Shown here piece by piece: positions 1 through 6,791 of a stretch of DNA of 6,791 bases. Position numbers and translations under genes: made by a program. The DNA comes from a virus (taxonomy: Duplodnaviria > Heunggongvirae > Uroviricota > Caudoviricetes). The DNA lies in IMG/VR virus record IMGVR_UViG_2703718769_000011. One strand, written 5' to 3'. Position 1 is the stretch's first letter; every line of letters starts with the position of its first letter. A model generated the notes under the pieces. The model had not been told where the DNA came from, did no database searches, and was given only the letters and a program-made list of their open reading frames with translations.

Positions 1-218
1 TGGTATGGATGACGGATGGCTGGCCGCTGTATGAATCACGCCTGAAGGGAAAGCTGCACGTTATCAGCAAGCGTTACACTCAGCGCATTGAGCGACATAA
101 TCTGAATCTGAGACAACATCTGGCAAGGCTGGGACGGAAGTCACTGTCGTTCTCAAAATCGGTGGAGCTGCATGACAAGGTCATCGGGCATTATCTGAAC
201 ATAAAGCACTATCAGTAA
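1..218 (+). CDS. insB: IS1 transposase InsB, C-terminal portion (5' end outside the window)
   Basis: The translation ...[70 protein letters not shown] followed by TAA at 216..218 matches the InsB C-terminus as I recall it. The frame is open from the window edge (codons at 3..5, 6..8), so the ATG at 9 in the ORF track is internal, not the true start. Confidence 0.85.
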
Positions 219-233
219 GTTGGAGTCACTACC
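1..233 (+). mobile_element. IS1 insertion sequence, right-hand portion (element continues upstream of the window); terminal inverted repeat about 211..233
   Basis: Positions 211..233 (atcagtaagttggagtcactacc) match the IS1 terminal inverted repeat as I recall it (ATCAATAAGTTGGAGTCATTACC) with two mismatches and the characteristic ...ACC end. The upstream sequence encodes the C-terminal part of InsB. The exact boundary at 233 is from recall of the IS1 terminus. Confidence 0.85.
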
Positions 234-1392
234 CACGCTCTACAGATGGTTCAGCTTCCACCAGGATTTCATTTTTTTGAGTATCGGATTCTGCCGTCTC
301 CACTGGAGCAGTTTGTGCTGCTGACTGCTGGAGAGCATTAGCAGAGCTCTGGTCTGTTTCTTCATGTTCAAACACGCCCTTTGTCGTCAGGTATTCGCTG
401 ATATATTTGTTCAGTGCAACGGGATCTTTGTGAATATCGATCGGACGTTCGCGAACAAGGCCAAAAATAGTCTGACGGTCATAGGCAAGTGCTTCGGGCT
501 GTTTGCGCATTGATGCTGAGATACGCTTCCAGTCTTCGCGATCCTTGTCGATAACCTCATTTGTCGCCCAGCGATGGATGGTACCGTCAATGTTTCCTGC
601 ATCCACATCACCGGGCCAGAGGGCGCAGGCCAGTTCATTGTCGAGTGTTTTCCATGTCTGTTTGTATTCGCGGCGAATGGCAACAGTGACAGCCCCGGTT
701 TTTTCAGCAGCGTTTTCAGTGTTCTGTTGGTTGACTCTGGCGCGGGCGAGATCAACAACAGACGTGTATTTTCCGGTTTCCTTGCGTTCACCTTCGCGAC
801 GTTTTTTCCAGATGCGCATCTCTGCCTGAATTTCAGGCCATTTAGCGCCAGGCTCACATTTATTCTTAACCCACCCGATGGCATGCAGTTTAAGTTCAGG
901 ATACATGGCGTTAACTTCTGGCATTTTCATCAACGCTTCAACGATATGTCCGCCGAATGTTGCCATGTCTTCCTGTAGTAATTCCTGTGCGCTAATCACC
1001 ATATCAACGGTGATGTTTTCGCATGTGTCGAATTTAACCAGGACTGCGTTCTGTACTTCAGGGGACAGCTTGTCAAAATTGACGTTCATCGGATCGGATT
1101 CGGGTTCGACCGGGACAAAGGACGCAGACTCCTCATCCCAGCGGTTTTCCTGCATATATTCGGTATCCCAGGAATCGAGGGCAGGGCGGGGTATGCCGGG
1201 TTTATCCTCGCAGACAATAAATTTATAAGCGCAGTCCTGAGCTGCCGGGAATTGCTCCAGAAATTGCCAGTGAAATTTTGCGCGTGCGCGACGCTCATCA
1301 CCGGCTTCAATGGCAGTGGCCACCGCAACAGCGCTATCTTCTTCTATGGCCTGCTCGTCAGGAATAGCAGCGCAAATAAAGATTTTATTCAT
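229..1392 (-). CDS. Hypothetical acidic protein, 387 aa as read; the 3' end is fused to IS1, so it is probably C-terminally truncated
   Basis: Long ORF with ATG at 1392..1390 preceded by GAGGT 9 nt upstream. No motif I can assign. The stop TAG (229..231) and two bases of the last codon lie inside the IS1 terminal repeat. Last gene of the minus-strand block after the DicB-like and YdfD-like genes. Confidence 0.6.
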   Translation of the reverse strand: MNKIFICAAIPDEQAIEEDSAVAVATAIEAGDERRARAKFHWQFLEQFPAAQDCAYKFIVCEDKPGIPRPALDSWDTEYMQENRWDEESASFVPVEPESDPMNVNFDKLSPEVQNAVLVKFDTCENITVDMVISAQELLQEDMATFGGHIVEALMKMPEVNAMYPELKLHAIGWVKNKCEPGAKWPEIQAEMRIWKKRREGERKETGKYTSVVDLARARVNQQNTENAAEKTGAVTVAIRREYKQTWKTLDNELACALWPGDVDAGNIDGTIHRWATNEVIDKDREDWKRISASMRKQPEALAYDRQTIFGLVRERPIDIHKDPVALNKYISEYLTTKGVFEHEETDQSSANALQQSAAQTAPVETAESDTQKNEILVEAEPSVERG

Positions 1393-1487
1393 TGTGTTTT
1401 AACCTCATTACAGATTTCAGGGTGAACGAATCCCTGCCATTGCTGGCATTTTTAATCCGTTGGTATGGCGTTAATATGGCTGGCGGG

Positions 1488-1676
1488 TTATCCAGCCGGT
1501 GTTTCGTTATTCAGGTACAGCGATACTTTTTTTACCGGGAGGCATTCACCGGGGATTTTTTGTTCGTCCCTTACCTGAATGCAGGATGACTTACTGTCAT
1601 AAATTCCGGTAATCACATTCTGCGGCTCACCCGTTATAAGAAAAACGGTCATCACCAGTGCAAATGCTGAAGTCAT
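1488..1676 (-). CDS. Small membrane protein, 62 aa, YdfD-like (Qin-prophage small lysis protein family) candidate
   Basis: Its ATG overlaps the stop of the upstream DicB-like gene in an ATGA (1673..1676), implying translational coupling. The N-terminus MTSAFALVMTVFLITG is a hydrophobic transmembrane or signal-like segment. Size and position immediately after the dicB-like gene match the dicB-ydfD arrangement; I cannot recall the YdfD sequence, so the assignment is by context and architecture. Confidence 0.5.
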   Translation of the reverse strand: MTSAFALVMTVFLITGEPQNVITGIYDSKSSCIQVRDEQKIPGECLPVKKVSLYLNNETPAG

Positions 1677-1861
1677 TGACGTTCTCCGAAAATACCAAGT
1701 TTAATAAGGGCAATTCGGGAAAGAATGGAATTATCATTGAGCAGATAAGGCTCATATTTCCGCATATTAATGGCATCCTCAGTAAACGCTTTATTACTGA
1801 GCAGAACACCAATATCAAAACAACCTTCAGACGTATTAACGTTTGGTAATAACGTTTCCAT
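1673..1861 (-). CDS. dicB: DicB-like cell division inhibitor (62 aa)
   Basis: The translation METLLPNVNTSEGCFDIGVLLSNKAFTEDAINMRKYEPYLLNDN... closely resembles my recollection of E. coli DicB (starting MKTLLPNVNTSEGCF..., 62 aa). SD GAGGA lies 7 nt upstream of the ATG. It sits downstream of a DicF-like RNA, as in the Qin dicB operon. Confidence 0.75.
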   Translation of the reverse strand: METLLPNVNTSEGCFDIGVLLSNKAFTEDAINMRKYEPYLLNDNSILSRIALIKLGIFGERQ

Positions 1862-2038
1862 TATCGCGTCCTCAACAATGAATTTTGTGATGCAGTGCCT
1901 GGTGCCTCCAGGTGACGTTAACCAGTTAACAATTAACGCCGGATTGTTAGTTGATGTCTGTTACGCAAGTAAAAGACCGCTTGTTTTAACTGTTCCGCGT
2001 GCGCATAGCCGCATTCACCGCATCACAAAATTCACTTT

Positions 2039-2077
2039 AAAAAGGGCGGATATCCATTTCCGCCGAATCACCAGAAA
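2039..2077 (-). ncRNA. dicF: DicF-like small RNA (shortened variant) ending in an intrinsic terminator
   Basis: The minus strand reads UUUCUGGUGAUUCGGCGGAAAUGGAUAUCCGCCCUUUUU. The 5' UUUCUGGUGA matches the DicF seed as I recall it, and the 3' end is a GGCGGA/UCCGCC hairpin followed by a U-run. The following ...TTTTTAAAGTGAATTTTGTGATG also resembles sequence downstream of K-12 dicF. The dicB-like ATG lies about 175 nt downstream. Boundaries are approximate. Confidence 0.5.
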
Positions 2078-2440
2078 AGTGATAACAGAGGTTGTTGTGG
2101 CTGGGGTGTCACTTAAGCGTATGGTCAACCTGACAACCCGGTGTCCTCAACGGGGGAAGGAATAACCCCGCCATACTTACCGCCGCGCCATTTCGCGGAT
2201 TACCACAACCGGAAGCGCACGATCGAATTAAATTTAACGACGACCTATACAGAGAGACGAACTTCGCCGTGCGCTTTCGTGTTGTGTGCCTGCTTTAACC
2301 ACGTCAGGCGAGGTGGACTCGTTATTCCCCAACAACAAGGATCTTGTTAATCTGGATATCCACAACAAGAATAAGAGTATTCAGAGTGATCGCTGAATTA
2401 ACGGCAGCAATGGCGGCTATTCCTTAATTACCAGGCATCA

Positions 2441-2593
2441 TTAGTCAGAGTTTCTTGCTAACCAGCGATGCGCGCCAGCTTCGGTTTTAAACGTTTTACT
2501 TTTGGTATACGTCATCGCGGTAAACGTGCCGTCCTGGTTGGGGAAGACGCCGCACACCAGAGATTCATTGTTGCCAAGATTGAGCATATCCAT
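2441..2593 (-). CDS. Small prophage protein, 50 aa (below the ORF-track size cutoff); possibly YdfA/YdaF-like, first gene of the leftward operon
   Basis: ATG at 2593..2591 is preceded by TGAGGT with a 4-nt spacer. Translation: MDMLNLGNNESLVCGVFPNQDGTFTAMTYTKSKTFKTEAGAHRWLARNSD, stop TAA at 2441..2443. The family assignment is from context only (position relative to the dicF/dicB-like genes); I cannot recall a reference sequence. Confidence 0.5.
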   Translation of the reverse strand: MDMLNLGNNESLVCGVFPNQDGTFTAMTYTKSKTFKTEAGAHRWLARNSD

Positions 2594-2782
2594 GTTGACC
2601 TCATTTACCCTTAACGCCGGGTCGCGGAACTAAAAACCTGCTGCGCTGTTATACAAAGTGTTCCCGCCGTCATGTTCATACGCCTCGGGCTGGCTACTTA
2701 ACCCCTGACCACTGCCTGGTAACTCGAAGTATTGCCCTGCGTTCTGTGGGGCGGGGTGGGTTGATGAATATAATCTACAAGT

Positions 2783-2815
2783 AAAAACTGTTTGATGTCA
2801 ACAATAAATAACTGT
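2783..2815. promoter_or_regulatory. Candidate leftward operator/promoter (OL/PL-like)
   Basis: AAAAACTGTT-TGATGTC-AACAAT (2783..2805) resembles the 3818..3846 palindrome with the same 7-bp spacing, and a further AACTGTC lies at 2809..2815. On the minus strand a perfect TTGACA (-35, 2801..2796) is followed after 18 bp by TAGATT (-10, 2777..2772), pointing at the 50-aa gene. Confidence 0.35.
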
Positions 2816-2826
2816 CATTTTGGACG

Positions 2827-2851
2827 AAGAAAACTCCCTCATCAGTGGGAG
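2827..2851 (-). terminator. Possible weak intrinsic terminator after the toxin gene
   Basis: Minus strand CTCCC-ACTGATGA-GGGAG followed by TTTTCTTC, 15 nt after the toxin stop. The stem is only 5 bp. Confidence 0.3.
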
Positions 2852-2865
2852 CAAAAGCGGTGGGC

Positions 2866-3153
2866 TTAAAGATTAGCGGGGAATTGTCGACGGGCGTGAA
2901 CCACGTTTACAATTTCAATACCTGAAGTTGTCACCCGGTACAAAATTATGTAATTGGGGTGAGCCACAATCTCGCGCAAACCTGGCACTCTGTCGCTTGG
3001 CGGATATAAATACGGATGTTCGGATAACGGCAGGACGCAAGCTCTTAAGCGTTGCCATAAGCGTTCTGCCGCATCTATGTCGAAACGGGCAATATAACTA
3101 GTTATATCATCCAGATCGGTATCTGCGCTTTCAAGCCATAACACGGGTAACAT
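2866..3153 (-). CDS. parE: ParE/RelE-family type II toxin (ParE2-like), 95 aa
   Basis: The translation MLPVLWLESADTDLDDITSYIARFDIDAAERLWQRL...EIVAHPNYIILYRVTTSGIEIVNVVHARRQ has the size and pattern of RelE/ParE plasmid-stabilisation toxins. Its ATG directly follows the antitoxin stop (TAA-ATG at 3156..3151). Confidence 0.8.
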   Translation of the reverse strand: MLPVLWLESADTDLDDITSYIARFDIDAAERLWQRLRACVLPLSEHPYLYPPSDRVPGLREIVAHPNYIILYRVTTSGIEIVNVVHARRQFPANL

Positions 3154-3345
3154 TTACTGCTCTCTCCGTTCCTTGCGAATTTTGGCAAAGCGTTCTGCCA
3201 TTCTGCGCTCAACTTCATCATGTGGAATAGCAGGACGTGGATCAGCAAGGCTTGCGGCTACTTTTGCGCGTAACCATTCGTTATAACTGTTTTCTTGCTC
3301 AACGGTTTCAAATTCAGAAACCATTGGTGAAAGGGCTGTATTCAT
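3154..3345 (-). CDS. Small antitoxin, 63 aa, PaaA2-like (ParE-associated antitoxin)
   Basis: ATG at 3345..3343 is preceded by a strong SD AAGAGGAGG with a 6-nt spacer. The ORF-track start at 3408 has no SD and would overlap the repressor stop. Translation: MNTALSPMVSEFETVEQENSYNEWLRAKVAASLADPRPAIPHDEVERRMAERFAKIRKERREQ, charged and probably disordered. It sits immediately upstream of the ParE-like toxin; the size matches the 63-aa PaaA2 of the described paaR2-paaA2-parE2 system as I recall it. Confidence 0.65.
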   Translation of the reverse strand: MNTALSPMVSEFETVEQENSYNEWLRAKVAASLADPRPAIPHDEVERRMAERFAKIRKERREQ

Positions 3346-3374
3346 GACATACCTCCTCTTACAGGTGGTAGAGA

Positions 3375-3776
3375 TTACGCTCGGTGCCCCTTTTGGGCTG
3401 CGATCCACCGAGCAACAGTTTCTTCCATTGACTTTTTCTTATTTTTTATTTCCTGAAGCATTTTTTCTTGGTCTTCATCGGGAAATGCACTAAAAGCTTG
3501 GAGCAATTCACGTTGGCGAGGGCCAATTTTCATCGTGTCAGGAGTAAAAATTTGCTCTCCCTCTTCTGGAGGTAATAAAAACCAATGTAGTGGATGCCCT
3601 GTAACCTCGACCAACTTATCTAAGCTGGAGGCTTTAGGTGTGGCTTTTCCACTGACCCATTGCTGAACAGTTTGCTGTGTCACACCGACTCTACGAGCAA
3701 GTTCAGCTTGGCTCCATCCTGTTTCTTTGAGGAGCCTGCTAATTCTGTACATAGATACTTCTAGGGCCTTCATCAT
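3375..3776 (-). CDS. HTH (XRE/cI-type) transcriptional repressor, DicA/PaaR2-like; candidate prophage immunity repressor
   Basis: N-terminal helix-turn-helix SQAELARRVGVTQQTVQQWVSG. The C-terminal part (IGPRQRELLQAFSAFPDEDQEKMLQEI) resembles the DicA C-terminal region as I recall it. Divergent from the Cro-like gene across an operator-bearing intergenic region. The start could be ATG 3776 (no SD, possibly leaderless) or the internal ATG at 3752. Confidence 0.8.
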   Translation of the reverse strand: MMKALEVSMYRISRLLKETGWSQAELARRVGVTQQTVQQWVSGKATPKASSLDKLVEVTGHPLHWFLLPPEEGEQIFTPDTMKIGPRQRELLQAFSAFPDEDQEKMLQEIKNKKKSMEETVARWIAAQKGHRA

Positions 3777-3884
3777 TATTCGATTTTACAGGTAAATACT
3801 GTTAAAAGCACCACAATAAAAAACTGTTGATCATGAACAGTTTTTTATTGTAGCCTTTATCTATGAACTTCAGAGGAGGGCAAC
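3777..3884. promoter_or_regulatory. Divergent operator/promoter region (OR-like) between the repressor and Cro-like genes
   Basis: Perfect 11-bp inverted repeat AAAAAACTGTT-GATCATG-AACAGTTTTTT at 3818..3846, plus another ACTGTT at 3798..3803. SD GAGGAGGG at 3874..3880 serves the Cro-like ATG at 3885. A minus-strand TAAAAT at 3788..3783 sits just upstream of the repressor ATG, suggesting a leaderless transcript. Confidence 0.6.
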
Positions 3885-4145
3885 ATGCTCAATAGCACCC
3901 GTGAAAAAATTAAGCAGAAATACACACAGGCTGAAATAGGACGCTATATGGGAGTAACCCAACAAACTGTTTGGCAATGGTTTAGCTTGGGTATTCCTCC
4001 CAAACAGGTAATCCCTTTATGCCAACTAATGCAGTGGGGGGTTACTCCTCACGAACTCCGACCTGATATTTATCCTAACCCAACAGACGGCTTGCCTGCT
4101 GAGTTTCAGACTAGCACACAGCCAGCGACGGGAGTTGATTCATGA
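3885..4145 (+). CDS. Cro-like HTH protein (YdaS-like), 86 aa
   Basis: HTH QAEIGRYMGVTQQTVWQWFSLG, strong SD, first gene of the rightward operon. Its stop overlaps the next start in an ATGA (4142..4145). Confidence 0.7.
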   Translation: MLNSTREKIKQKYTQAEIGRYMGVTQQTVWQWFSLGIPPKQVIPLCQLMQWGVTPHELRPDIYPNPTDGLPAEFQTSTQPATGVDS

Positions 4146-4567
4146 AAATCAAGCATGAGCACATCCGCATGGCGATGAATGCCTGGGCATATCCTGACGG
4201 TGAGAAAGTTCCCGCAGCTGAAATAGCCCGGACTTATTTCGAACTGGGGATGACGTTCCCGGAACTGTACGACGACACTCATCCTGAGGCCCTGGCTCGT
4301 AATACCCAGAAAATTTTCCGTTGGCTGGATAAAGACACCCATGATGCTGTTGAAAAAATTCAGGCTCTGTTACCGGCGATCGAAAAGGCGATGCCGCCTT
4401 TGCTGGTGGCCCGTATGCGCAGTCACAGTTCTGAGTACTACCGGGAGATTGTCGAACGGCGGGATCGGCTGGTGAAGGATGTCGACGATTTTGTTGCGTC
4501 AGCGGTCGTTTTGTATGACCAGATAAATCGCGGCGGCCCGGCAGGGAATGCTGTGGTGATGCACTAA
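4142..4567 (+). CDS. ydaT: YdaT-like protein (CII-like regulator family; historically annotated toxin YdaT), 141 aa
   Basis: The translation begins MKIKHEHI..., which matches my recollection of Rac-prophage YdaT. It is translationally coupled to the Cro-like gene and has SD GGGAG 7 nt upstream. Confidence 0.6.
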   Translation: MKIKHEHIRMAMNAWAYPDGEKVPAAEIARTYFELGMTFPELYDDTHPEALARNTQKIFRWLDKDTHDAVEKIQALLPAIEKAMPPLLVARMRSHSSEYYREIVERRDRLVKDVDDFVASAVVLYDQINRGGPAGNAVVMH

Positions 4568-4589
4568 AAGCACGGTGTTCGGGGGTTTT

Positions 4590-5558
4590 ATGAGCAGCAA
4601 GCTTCATGGTCTTGTCTGGGAAGGATGCGCCTTCACTGGCATGATCTTATCAAGGGTGGCAGTAATGGCCCGTCTTGCAGATTACAGCAATGACGAGGGG
4701 GTGTCATGGCCTGCTATGGAAACGATCCGGCGTCAGATCGGTGCCAGAAGTGAATCCACCGTGAAATCTGCGATTGCAGAACTGGCGAAAGAGGGCTGGC
4801 TGACGAAGGAAGAGCGTAAGATCGGTGGGCGTAACGTAAGCAATATCTATCGGCTTAATGTGGAAAAACTCGAAGCAGCGGCAGCGGCGGCGCGTGAGGC
4901 ATATAAACCGAAAAGAAAAATTAGCCCGGCAAAAAATGACCCGTTAACAGTTGACCCGTCAAATATTGACCCCTCAACGGTTGACCCGTCAAATTCTGAG
5001 GGGTCAACCATTGATAAAAAACAGCCGATTAGGGGGGCGATGATTGACCCCGATCCGTCAGTATTAAAACCTGATCCGTCAGATAAAAGATCTTCTTGTC
5101 CGGACGTTTCACTTCCGGACGAAAAAAAATCATCTCCGGTTGAACGCTTTCTGGATAAACACCCTGATGCGCATACGTGGAATGTGCCGAAGCGACAGTG
5201 GGGAACCCGTGATGATATTACCTGTGCGCAGTGGATCTGGGGGCGTGTTGTTGCGCTGTATGAACACGCAGCCAGTGATGATGGTGAGGTTTCTCGCCCC
5301 AGAGAGCCAAACTGGACGACATGGGCTAACGATGTCCGGATGATGCGCATGCTGGATGGCCGCAGTCACCGGCAGATTTGTGAAATGTTCAGTCGGGTGC
5401 AGCGGGATCCGTTCTGGGTAAAAAATATCATGAGTCCGGCAAAACTGCGCGAAAAATGGGATGAACTGGTCATTCGTCTTGGGCGTGGGCCTGCGCAGAG
5501 TTGCGTGAATCATATTTCTGAACCGGACACTGAAATTCCACCGGGTTTCAGGGGGTAA
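4590..5558 (+). CDS. Phage replication initiation protein (O-like): N-terminal winged-HTH domain, iteron-encoded linker, DnaT-like C-terminal tail
   Basis: The N-terminus (from the ATG at 4590, GGGGG just upstream; the ORF-track start at 4575 is a GTG) has an HTH-like region ...VSWPAMETIRRQIGARSESTVKSAIAELAKEGWL. The C-terminus ...SEPDTEIPPGFRG matches the E. coli DnaT C-terminus (...SEPDSQIPPGFRG) as I recall it. Direct repeats lie inside the coding sequence. Immediately upstream of the DnaC-like gene. Confidence 0.75.
   Translation: MSSKLHGLVWEGCAFTGMILSRVAVMARLADYSNDEGVSWPAMETIRRQIGARSESTVKSAIAELAKEGWLTKEERKIGGRNVSNIYRLNVEKLEAAAAAAREAYKPKRKISPAKNDPLTVDPSNIDPSTVDPSNSEGSTIDKKQPIRGAMIDPDPSVLKPDPSDKRSSCPDVSLPDEKKSSPVERFLDKHPDAHTWNVPKRQWGTRDDITCAQWIWGRVVALYEHAASDDGEVSRPREPNWTTWANDVRMMRMLDGRSHRQICEMFSRVQRDPFWVKNIMSPAKLREKWDELVIRLGRGPAQSCVNHISEPDTEIPPGFRG
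4936..5007. repeat. Candidate replication-origin iterons inside the O-like gene
   Basis: Four copies of TTGACCC(G/C)TCAA or its inverted form start at 4951, 4966, 4981 and 4996 (15-bp period), with an imperfect fifth at about 4937..4948. An A-rich stretch follows (5013..5022) and a more distant related copy lies at about 5044..5060. Confidence 0.6.
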
Positions 5559-5564
5559 CTGACC

Positions 5565-6317
5565 ATGAAAGATATCGCGACAGTTGCAGTTGGTGTTCTG
5601 GAACGCATCCGCAGACTGGCTCCTGAGCACGTTCCCGTGCCGTACAGTACGACGGAGGAGTGGCGCGAGTGGCAACTTGCCGAAGGCCGGAAATACTGCG
5701 AGGAGATTAACCGCCGGAATCGTCAGTTGCGGGTGGAAAAAATCCTGAACCGTTCGGGCATCCAGCCGCTGCACCGCAAATGTTCGTTCGCGAATTACCA
5801 GGTGCGGAACGACGGGCAGAAACATGCGCTGAGCCAGGCTAAATCCATCGCTGAGGAAATGATGACCGGTTATACAAACTTCGTGTTCAGCGGGAATCCG
5901 GGAACCGGAAAAAATCATCTGGCGGCGGCTGTGGGTAATCGTCTGCTGAAGGCTGGTAAATCCGTGATAGTGGTCACCGTGGCGGATGTGATGAGCGCGT
6001 TACATGCCAGCTATGACGACGGGCTGTCAGGGGAAAAATTTTTGCGTGAACTGTGCGAAGTGGACCTCCTGGTTCTTGACGAAATTGGCATCCAGCGTGA
6101 GACGAAAAACGAGCAGGTGGTACTGCACCAGATTGTTGACCGCCGGACGGCATCACTGTGCAGTGTCGGGATGCTGACAAACCTGAATCATGCCGCAATG
6201 AGCACGCTTCTTGGTGAGAGGATTATGGACAGGATGACCATGAACGGTGGTCGCTGGGTGAGTTTTAACTGGGAAAGCTGGCGTCCCAATGTCAGCCATC
6301 TGAGAGTATTGAAGTAA
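5565..6317 (+). CDS. DnaC-family helicase loader (phage-encoded DnaC paralog), 250 aa
   Basis: Walker [14 protein letters not shown] and Walker [10 protein letters not shown]. There is extended similarity to E. coli DnaC as I recall it (NRSGI.PLH..CSF.NY, ...GMLTN.N...LLGER.MDRM, ...FNW.S). SD GGGGG lies 8 nt upstream. Confidence 0.85.
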
Positions 6318-6339
6318 TTTTTATCCGGAGGAAATTTTA

Positions 6340-6791
6340 ATGGAAACCGTTTTTGACGCACTGAAAGCACTGAAAAGAGCCTCTTCACAGGTAGTGGCGG
6401 CCCGCCTTGGAATCAGCCGTGAAGATGCGGTCAACGAACTGTGGAAACTGAAGCGCCGTGGTGAAGCGGATAACAAGGGGTCGATGTGGTGGCTGATTCA
6501 GGCTGGTGAAAGTGAACCTGTGTCACAGGTACCGAAAGTGACAGCGCAAATGCTGACTGAGGCGATTGAACAACATGGCCCACAAACGGCGGATGAACTG
6601 GCACTGATGTTCGGAATTACCTCCCGCCGGGCGAATTCATCGCTGGCGATGGCAATCAGCAAAGGGCGTCTGATTCGCGTGAATCAGGGCGGTAAATTTC
6701 GTTACTGCATACCGGGCGCTGATTTACCGGCAGAGCCGGAAGCTGCATCCGTAGCGGAAACGGATGGTAAAGCCTTTCCTCAGCCAGCAGG
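6340..6791 (+). CDS. Hypothetical protein, 3'-truncated by the window end (150 codons visible, not in the ORF track)
   Basis: ATG at 6340 is preceded by SD GGAGGA (6327..6332). The frame stays open to the window end. Translation starts [43 protein letters not shown]... and has a second similar segment ([32 protein letters not shown]). Confidence 0.55.

Follow-up and report, generated by a model that had tools for sequence, protein, structure and literature searches.

Joining of an IS1 right end to a lambdoid prophage 3'-5' exonuclease gene at codon 387

The 6791-nt stretch of DNA analysed here (the window) begins inside an IS1 element, and an open reading frame of 387 codons on its minus strand ends at the edge of that element. 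This raises the question of whether the frame is a complete gene that happens to stop there or a gene that has been cut by the insertion element, and, if it has been cut, what became of the remainder. We conclude that the right end of an IS1 of the IS1X2 type is almost certainly joined to an exonuclease gene of a lambdoid prophage and truncates it, the join falling after the first base of codon 387. How the two came to be joined is a matter of lower confidence and is considered separately.

The IS1 right end and the hybrid codon

The first 233 bases of the window (1..233, plus strand) are the 3'-terminal 233 bp of an IS1 element of the IS1X2 type. An IS1X2 copy from E. coli QDFD216 has a 3' end identical to window 1-233 (0 mismatches in 233 bases), and the final 233 bases of the annotated IS1A of K-12 align with the same stretch without gaps and with 18 mismatches. 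Both references terminate in ...ACC at window position 233 and continue beyond it into unrelated flanks. The gap-free alignment to IS1A and the complete identity to IS1X2 bear out the original prediction, which had placed the IS1 terminus at position 233. A complete IS1 is ∼768 bp long and carries insA and insB, which are expressed with a programmed -1 frameshift; 233 of the 768 bp are present in the window, and the left end and insA lie outside it. The right terminal inverted repeat, 23 bp in length, occupies 211..233 (reverse complement GGTAGTGACTCCAACTTACTGAT). It equals the right repeat of IS1X2 base for base and matches the left repeat of the QDFD216 copy at 18 of 23 bases. The terminal sequence and ∼23-bp imperfect inverted repeat typical of the IS1 family (GGT.../...ACC) are therefore represented in the window by the right end only. 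The last 69 codons of the IS1 transposase gene (insB part) are found at 9..218 on the plus strand. Their product matches PF03400 (DDE_Tnp_IS1) with E=1e-36 over profile positions 63-131 of 131, that is, as the C-terminal residues of an IS1-type DDE transposase (InsAB') the rest of whose gene is outside the window. The apparent ATG start of this frame is a window-edge effect. In its right-end sequence, its inverted repeat and its InsB C-terminus, the element in the window is as in IS1A and IS1X2.

Within window 181-260 the sequence reads ...cact atcagtaagt tggagtcact acc|cacgctctacagatgg..., where the bar marks the IS1 terminus, and the first base with homology to an IS-free allele of the gene is exactly 234. 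The truncated gene (229..1392, minus strand) was recognized by its match to an 823-aa prophage 3'-5' exonuclease of E. coli OkiPb01678 and consists of 386 native codons of YdfE-type N-terminal region, a hybrid glycine codon and a TAG stop. On the minus strand its 3' end reads GAA CCA TCT GTA GAG CGT G|GG TAG, while the intact allele at the same point reads GTA GAG CGT GAA GGA CCA TTT (E G P F...). The insertion point is after the first base of codon 387, changing the native GAA to GGG. In the hybrid codon (232..234, minus strand) base 234 is native, being the first base of Glu387, and bases 233-232 belong to IS1. The TAG (229..231, minus strand), directly followed by TGA, lies within the inverted repeat at 211-233. 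On direct reading, both details of the original prediction at this point, a last glycine codon straddling the IS1 boundary and a stop codon wholly inside the repeat, were found as described.

The immediate stop is a consequence of the phase of insertion. Of the three frames that enter IS1 from its right end, one meets TAG TGA straight away and the other two stop after 6 and 26 codons, so that an immediate stop is a roughly one-in-three outcome and unremarkable. The stop in the terminal repeat is TAG in IS1X2 and in the window, whereas IS1A of K-12 has TAA at this position.

The intact allele and its prophage

The complete genomes of E. coli OkiPb01678 and OkiPb01712 both contain a 100% match to window 234-1500 without IS1. 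For OkiPb01678 the correspondence covers the entire window beyond IS1: window 234-6791 equals positions 6001-12558 of the locus (L001) with 1 mismatch (position 4033) in 6558 bases and no gaps. The intact gene in this genome (L001 4688..7159) has 823 codons and is annotated as a '3'-5' exonuclease' (WP_464289453.1). Alignment to an uninterrupted homologue had been proposed as a check along with the original prediction. Residues 1-386 of the 823-aa protein are identical to the product of the window ORF (386/386), after which the IS-free allele runs on for 437 further codons. The cut in the window gene falls at 47% of the full length, and the native C-terminus has been replaced, as had been claimed.

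Precomputed Pfam matches on the exact 387-aa product are to PF27430 (YdfE_N) and PF27432 (YdfE_C), which together with the 386/386 identity identify the window ORF as a YdfE-type N-terminal region. A scan of the same ORF against the local Pfam library gave no match, and hence none to the Rv2179c-like 3'-5' exoribonuclease domain (PF16473). In the intact protein this domain (E=9e-62) spans residues 641-813 and is the only one found with the local library. As judged from sequence, the window gene is a fragment of a member of the YdfE-type exonuclease family and not a functional member. In the intact allele, the linker between the YdfE part and the nuclease is acidic and rich in Gln and contains a CxxC...CxxC motif (CTACG...CPDCG). 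This motif resembles a zinc ribbon.

If IS1 had landed at or next to the natural stop, the 387-aa protein would be essentially full length, and IS-free homologues ending at the same residue would be expected; such homologues were named in the original prediction as the finding that would overturn it. The allele that is identical over residues 1-386 goes on to 823 aa instead. In the protein database, relatives with the PF27430+PF27432+PF16473 architecture are 811-818 aa long, full length being the rule, so that forms carrying the C-terminal nuclease domain span 811-823 aa. Among 5426 complete E. coli genomes, 4007 have the N-terminal part (6929 places) and 3983 have the C-terminal nuclease domain (7663 places). 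Because these two numbers are so similar, a naturally short form is not a common variant. We regard a natural stop at this position as refuted and give it practically no probability. The same counts were examined for selective retention of copies with the N-terminal part only, a candidate that was rejected since there was no excess of them (4007 versus 3983 genomes).

In OkiPb01678 the exonuclease gene is followed by genes for an excisionase (xis) and an integrase (int) and then by ompW. It is preceded by a DUF1482 gene, dicB, a DUF1391 gene, a RelE/RelB-type pair and a gene for a cI/DicA-like repressor. The locus is the early-left operon of a lambdoid (Qin/PPompW-like) prophage integrated beside ompW. 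In the window, a RelE/ParE-family toxin (95 aa) and a RelB/PaaA2-type antitoxin are encoded at 2866-3408 (minus strand), and this pair sits in the operon between the repressor gene (3375..3776) and the DUF1391 gene.

We also compared the window gene with known genes at this operon position. K-12 ydfE (b1577), in the cryptic prophage Qin, belongs to the same gene family, sharing 89% identity with the intact 823-aa protein over residues 1-255, and it likewise comes after dicB and ydfD in the early-left operon. According to its annotation it is a pseudogene continuing into IS2E, its N-terminal fragment ending inside an insertion sequence as does that of the window. Its homology ends at residue 255, the exact start of IS2E, whereas the window gene is cut at codon 387; the element is an IS2 fragment in K-12 and IS1 in the window. 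The K-12 product (L005, NC_000913.3, 5079-6549) has 255 native and 51 IS2-encoded residues, in contrast to the single glycine that forms the tail in the window. The K-12 locus has clearly suffered a deletion, with a partial IS2E and a truncated intQ. A homologous 'putative exonuclease' of phage PPompW_132418 (L008, LC567822.1, 1676-4143) is recorded as a pseudogene in which a deletion has shifted the frame, which is another independent inactivation. Since ydfE was cut by IS2E and the PPompW_132418 gene was frameshifted, inactivation of this exonuclease gene in resident prophages is commonplace, and the case in the window is an ordinary one, already known in kind. A literature search on ydfE showed nothing relevant among the titles and abstracts listed.

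RecE (exonuclease VIII) of the Rac prophage is encoded at the same place in the early-left operon, and many records name members of the YdfE-type family 'exonuclease VIII' or RecE. The intact 823-aa allele gives PF16473 as its only match in Pfam and no RecE-type C-terminal nuclease domain. The RecE label is positional, with no homology of the catalytic domains indicated.

Occurrence of the junction and the far side of IS1

The exact 387-aa product, including the hybrid glycine, was read on 4 contigs; the two places shown in the product look-up stand for 4 NCBI and 3 Logan samples. A 6577-bp contig, JAHVPL010000074.1 (GCA_021079725.1), is identical to window 109-6685. All public contigs that carry the junction are short draft contigs ending inside IS1, and the window too starts inside IS1, a situation in which a chimera made by assembly at a repeated element has to be considered. 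Against this, the fusion product was assembled independently in several samples and the breakpoint is the true IS1 terminus to the base, which is not expected of chimeric joins. For these reasons it is very unlikely that the junction is an assembly artefact. A search for the exact junction found it neither in the 5426 complete E. coli genomes nor in the GTDB species representatives or IMG/VR. Because the complete genomes lack it, it can serve to mark a small E. coli lineage.

IS1 usually duplicates 9 bp of its target (sometimes 8-14 bp). On this habit, bases 234..242 (CACGCTCTA) are predicted to be one copy of a target-site duplication, the other copy of which would be beyond the window. A simple insertion would place the left end of IS1 after ...AAAATGGTCCTTCACGCTCTA. 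Expressed for the element itself, the left end GGTGATGCTGCCAACTTACTG... would come after ...GACGAAATAAAATGGTCCTTCACGCTCTA, and it would directly adjoin ...GGTCCTTCACGCTCTA and the remaining 1.3 kb of the gene. When the far side was modelled as a simple insertion with a 9-bp duplication, an open frame of 469 codons was obtained, in which 29 IS1-derived residues precede LEREGPFYF... and the first in-frame starts are GTG88 and ATG111.

Given that the truncation by IS1 is real, simple transposition with a 9-bp duplication, leaving the rest of the gene just beyond IS1 as the original prediction supposed, is in our judgement the most likely course and a fairly probable one. We are more doubtful of the alternative that the junction arose by an IS1-mediated adjacent deletion, by inversion or by recombination between IS1 copies. 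Such an event would leave no target-site duplication, and the distal 437 codons, possibly with xis, int, the attachment site and neighbouring chromosome, would have been lost or moved. Our weighting rests on prior knowledge of the behaviour of IS1, for which simple insertion is the commoner outcome, and on the identical IS1X2 copy (locus L007), which has a clean 9-bp direct repeat, CATGACTTA, on both flanks. That a rearrangement is possible at all follows from the established ability of IS1 to promote adjacent deletions, and the related prophages provide parallels: in K-12, a partial IS2E (706 bp) and the truncated intQ come after ydfE. In E. coli NT1F10 (L004, 4696-6517), a Qin-like prophage has an IS1 beside its dicB, and this IS1 directly adjoins a ydfJ that has no N-terminus. 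This arrangement is found in ∼10 related E. coli genomes from pigs and cows, in which the exonuclease is intact, and it suggests that IS1 deleted the rest of the prophage there.

The searches for the far side bear on the same choice. No fusion of the IS1 leader to the remainder of the exonuclease was found in protein searches with a 120-aa query centred on the junction or with the full 469 aa; the matches returned were IS1-leader fusions to unrelated genes and ordinary exonuclease homologues. The predicted far-side products of 382 aa and 359 aa had no exact match in the protein collection, which itself does not hold the intact 823-aa protein. A DNA pattern for the far junction, allowing a gap of 0-16 bases, was run against the viral, metagenome and species-representative genome collections and matched nothing. 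These results are in the direction of a deletion or rearrangement. However, they carry little weight, because the protein collection does not contain even the intact protein and draft assemblies often break inside the gene. Every contig with the junction, moreover, ends in IS1. We continue to favour simple insertion.

Recurrent IS1 insertion into the exonuclease gene, suggested by a set of hits (H1-H27), was also considered and rejected, since H1 has an undamaged exonuclease gene, with its IS1 on the other side of dicB. Draft E. coli assemblies contain hundreds of 'partial' exonuclease fragments, some N-terminal (∼420-480 aa) and others C-terminal (∼500-620 aa). Breaks in the middle of this gene are evidently frequent in such contigs, probably since several prophages in a genome share it, and these fragments should not be mistaken for truncations.

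Consequences for the prophage and other features of the window

The truncated gene keeps its start and first 386 codons, including the two YdfE-type N-terminal domains, and its translation ends with the hybrid glycine at the TAG in the IS1 repeat. The 437 codons missing from it comprise the acidic, Gln-rich linker and the only catalytic domain (residues 641-813). On domain content, the truncation removes all recognisable catalytic capacity, and we infer that the remnant is a nuclease-dead pseudogene. A stable N-terminal fragment is possibly made from it.

IS1 is classically strongly polar. Because of this polarity, early-leftward transcription through dicB and the DUF1482 gene should end in IS1 and should not reach xis and int, if these are still present. 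Loss of their transcription would help to fix the prophage in the chromosome. Should xis and int have been put out of action as well, be it by IS1 polarity or by a deletion, the prophage is probably unable to leave its site.

The N-terminal YdfE module is kept both in K-12, where IS2 cuts at codon 255, and in the window, where IS1 cuts at codon 387. One could propose that this module has a function of its own and that loss of the nuclease, along with polarity of the insertion sequence on xis and int, was selected as a step in domestication of the prophage, beyond neutral decay. We consider this improbable. The locus is better described as one more case of prophage decay driven by insertion sequences, parallel to ydfE of K-12. 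Its significance lies almost wholly in proper annotation: the fitting label for the 387-aa ORF is not a complete gene but an IS1-truncated pseudogene fragment, derived from a prophage 3'-5' exonuclease gene.

A few other features of the window were observed. A scan of the window against Rfam at gathering thresholds matched no family, DicF included. Below threshold, the sRNA STnc100 was matched at 1829-2046 (minus strand) with 33.4 bits versus a gathering score of 47 (E=3e-5), and this match overlaps the 5' end of dicB and the region upstream of it. The sole difference between the window and OkiPb01678, A/T at 4033, falls in a YdaS-like gene (3885-4145, plus strand) and by hand translation changes Gln50 to Leu. 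PGAP marks this gene as 'frameshifted' in OkiPb01678, yet it has the same length there as in the window. Inside the gene for a replication initiator (O-like; 4575..5558), ∼5 tandem repeats of 15 bp (or of a 30-bp period) are found at 4916-4994. They encode a repeated DPS.(I/V)DPS motif and resemble the iterons of lambdoid origins.
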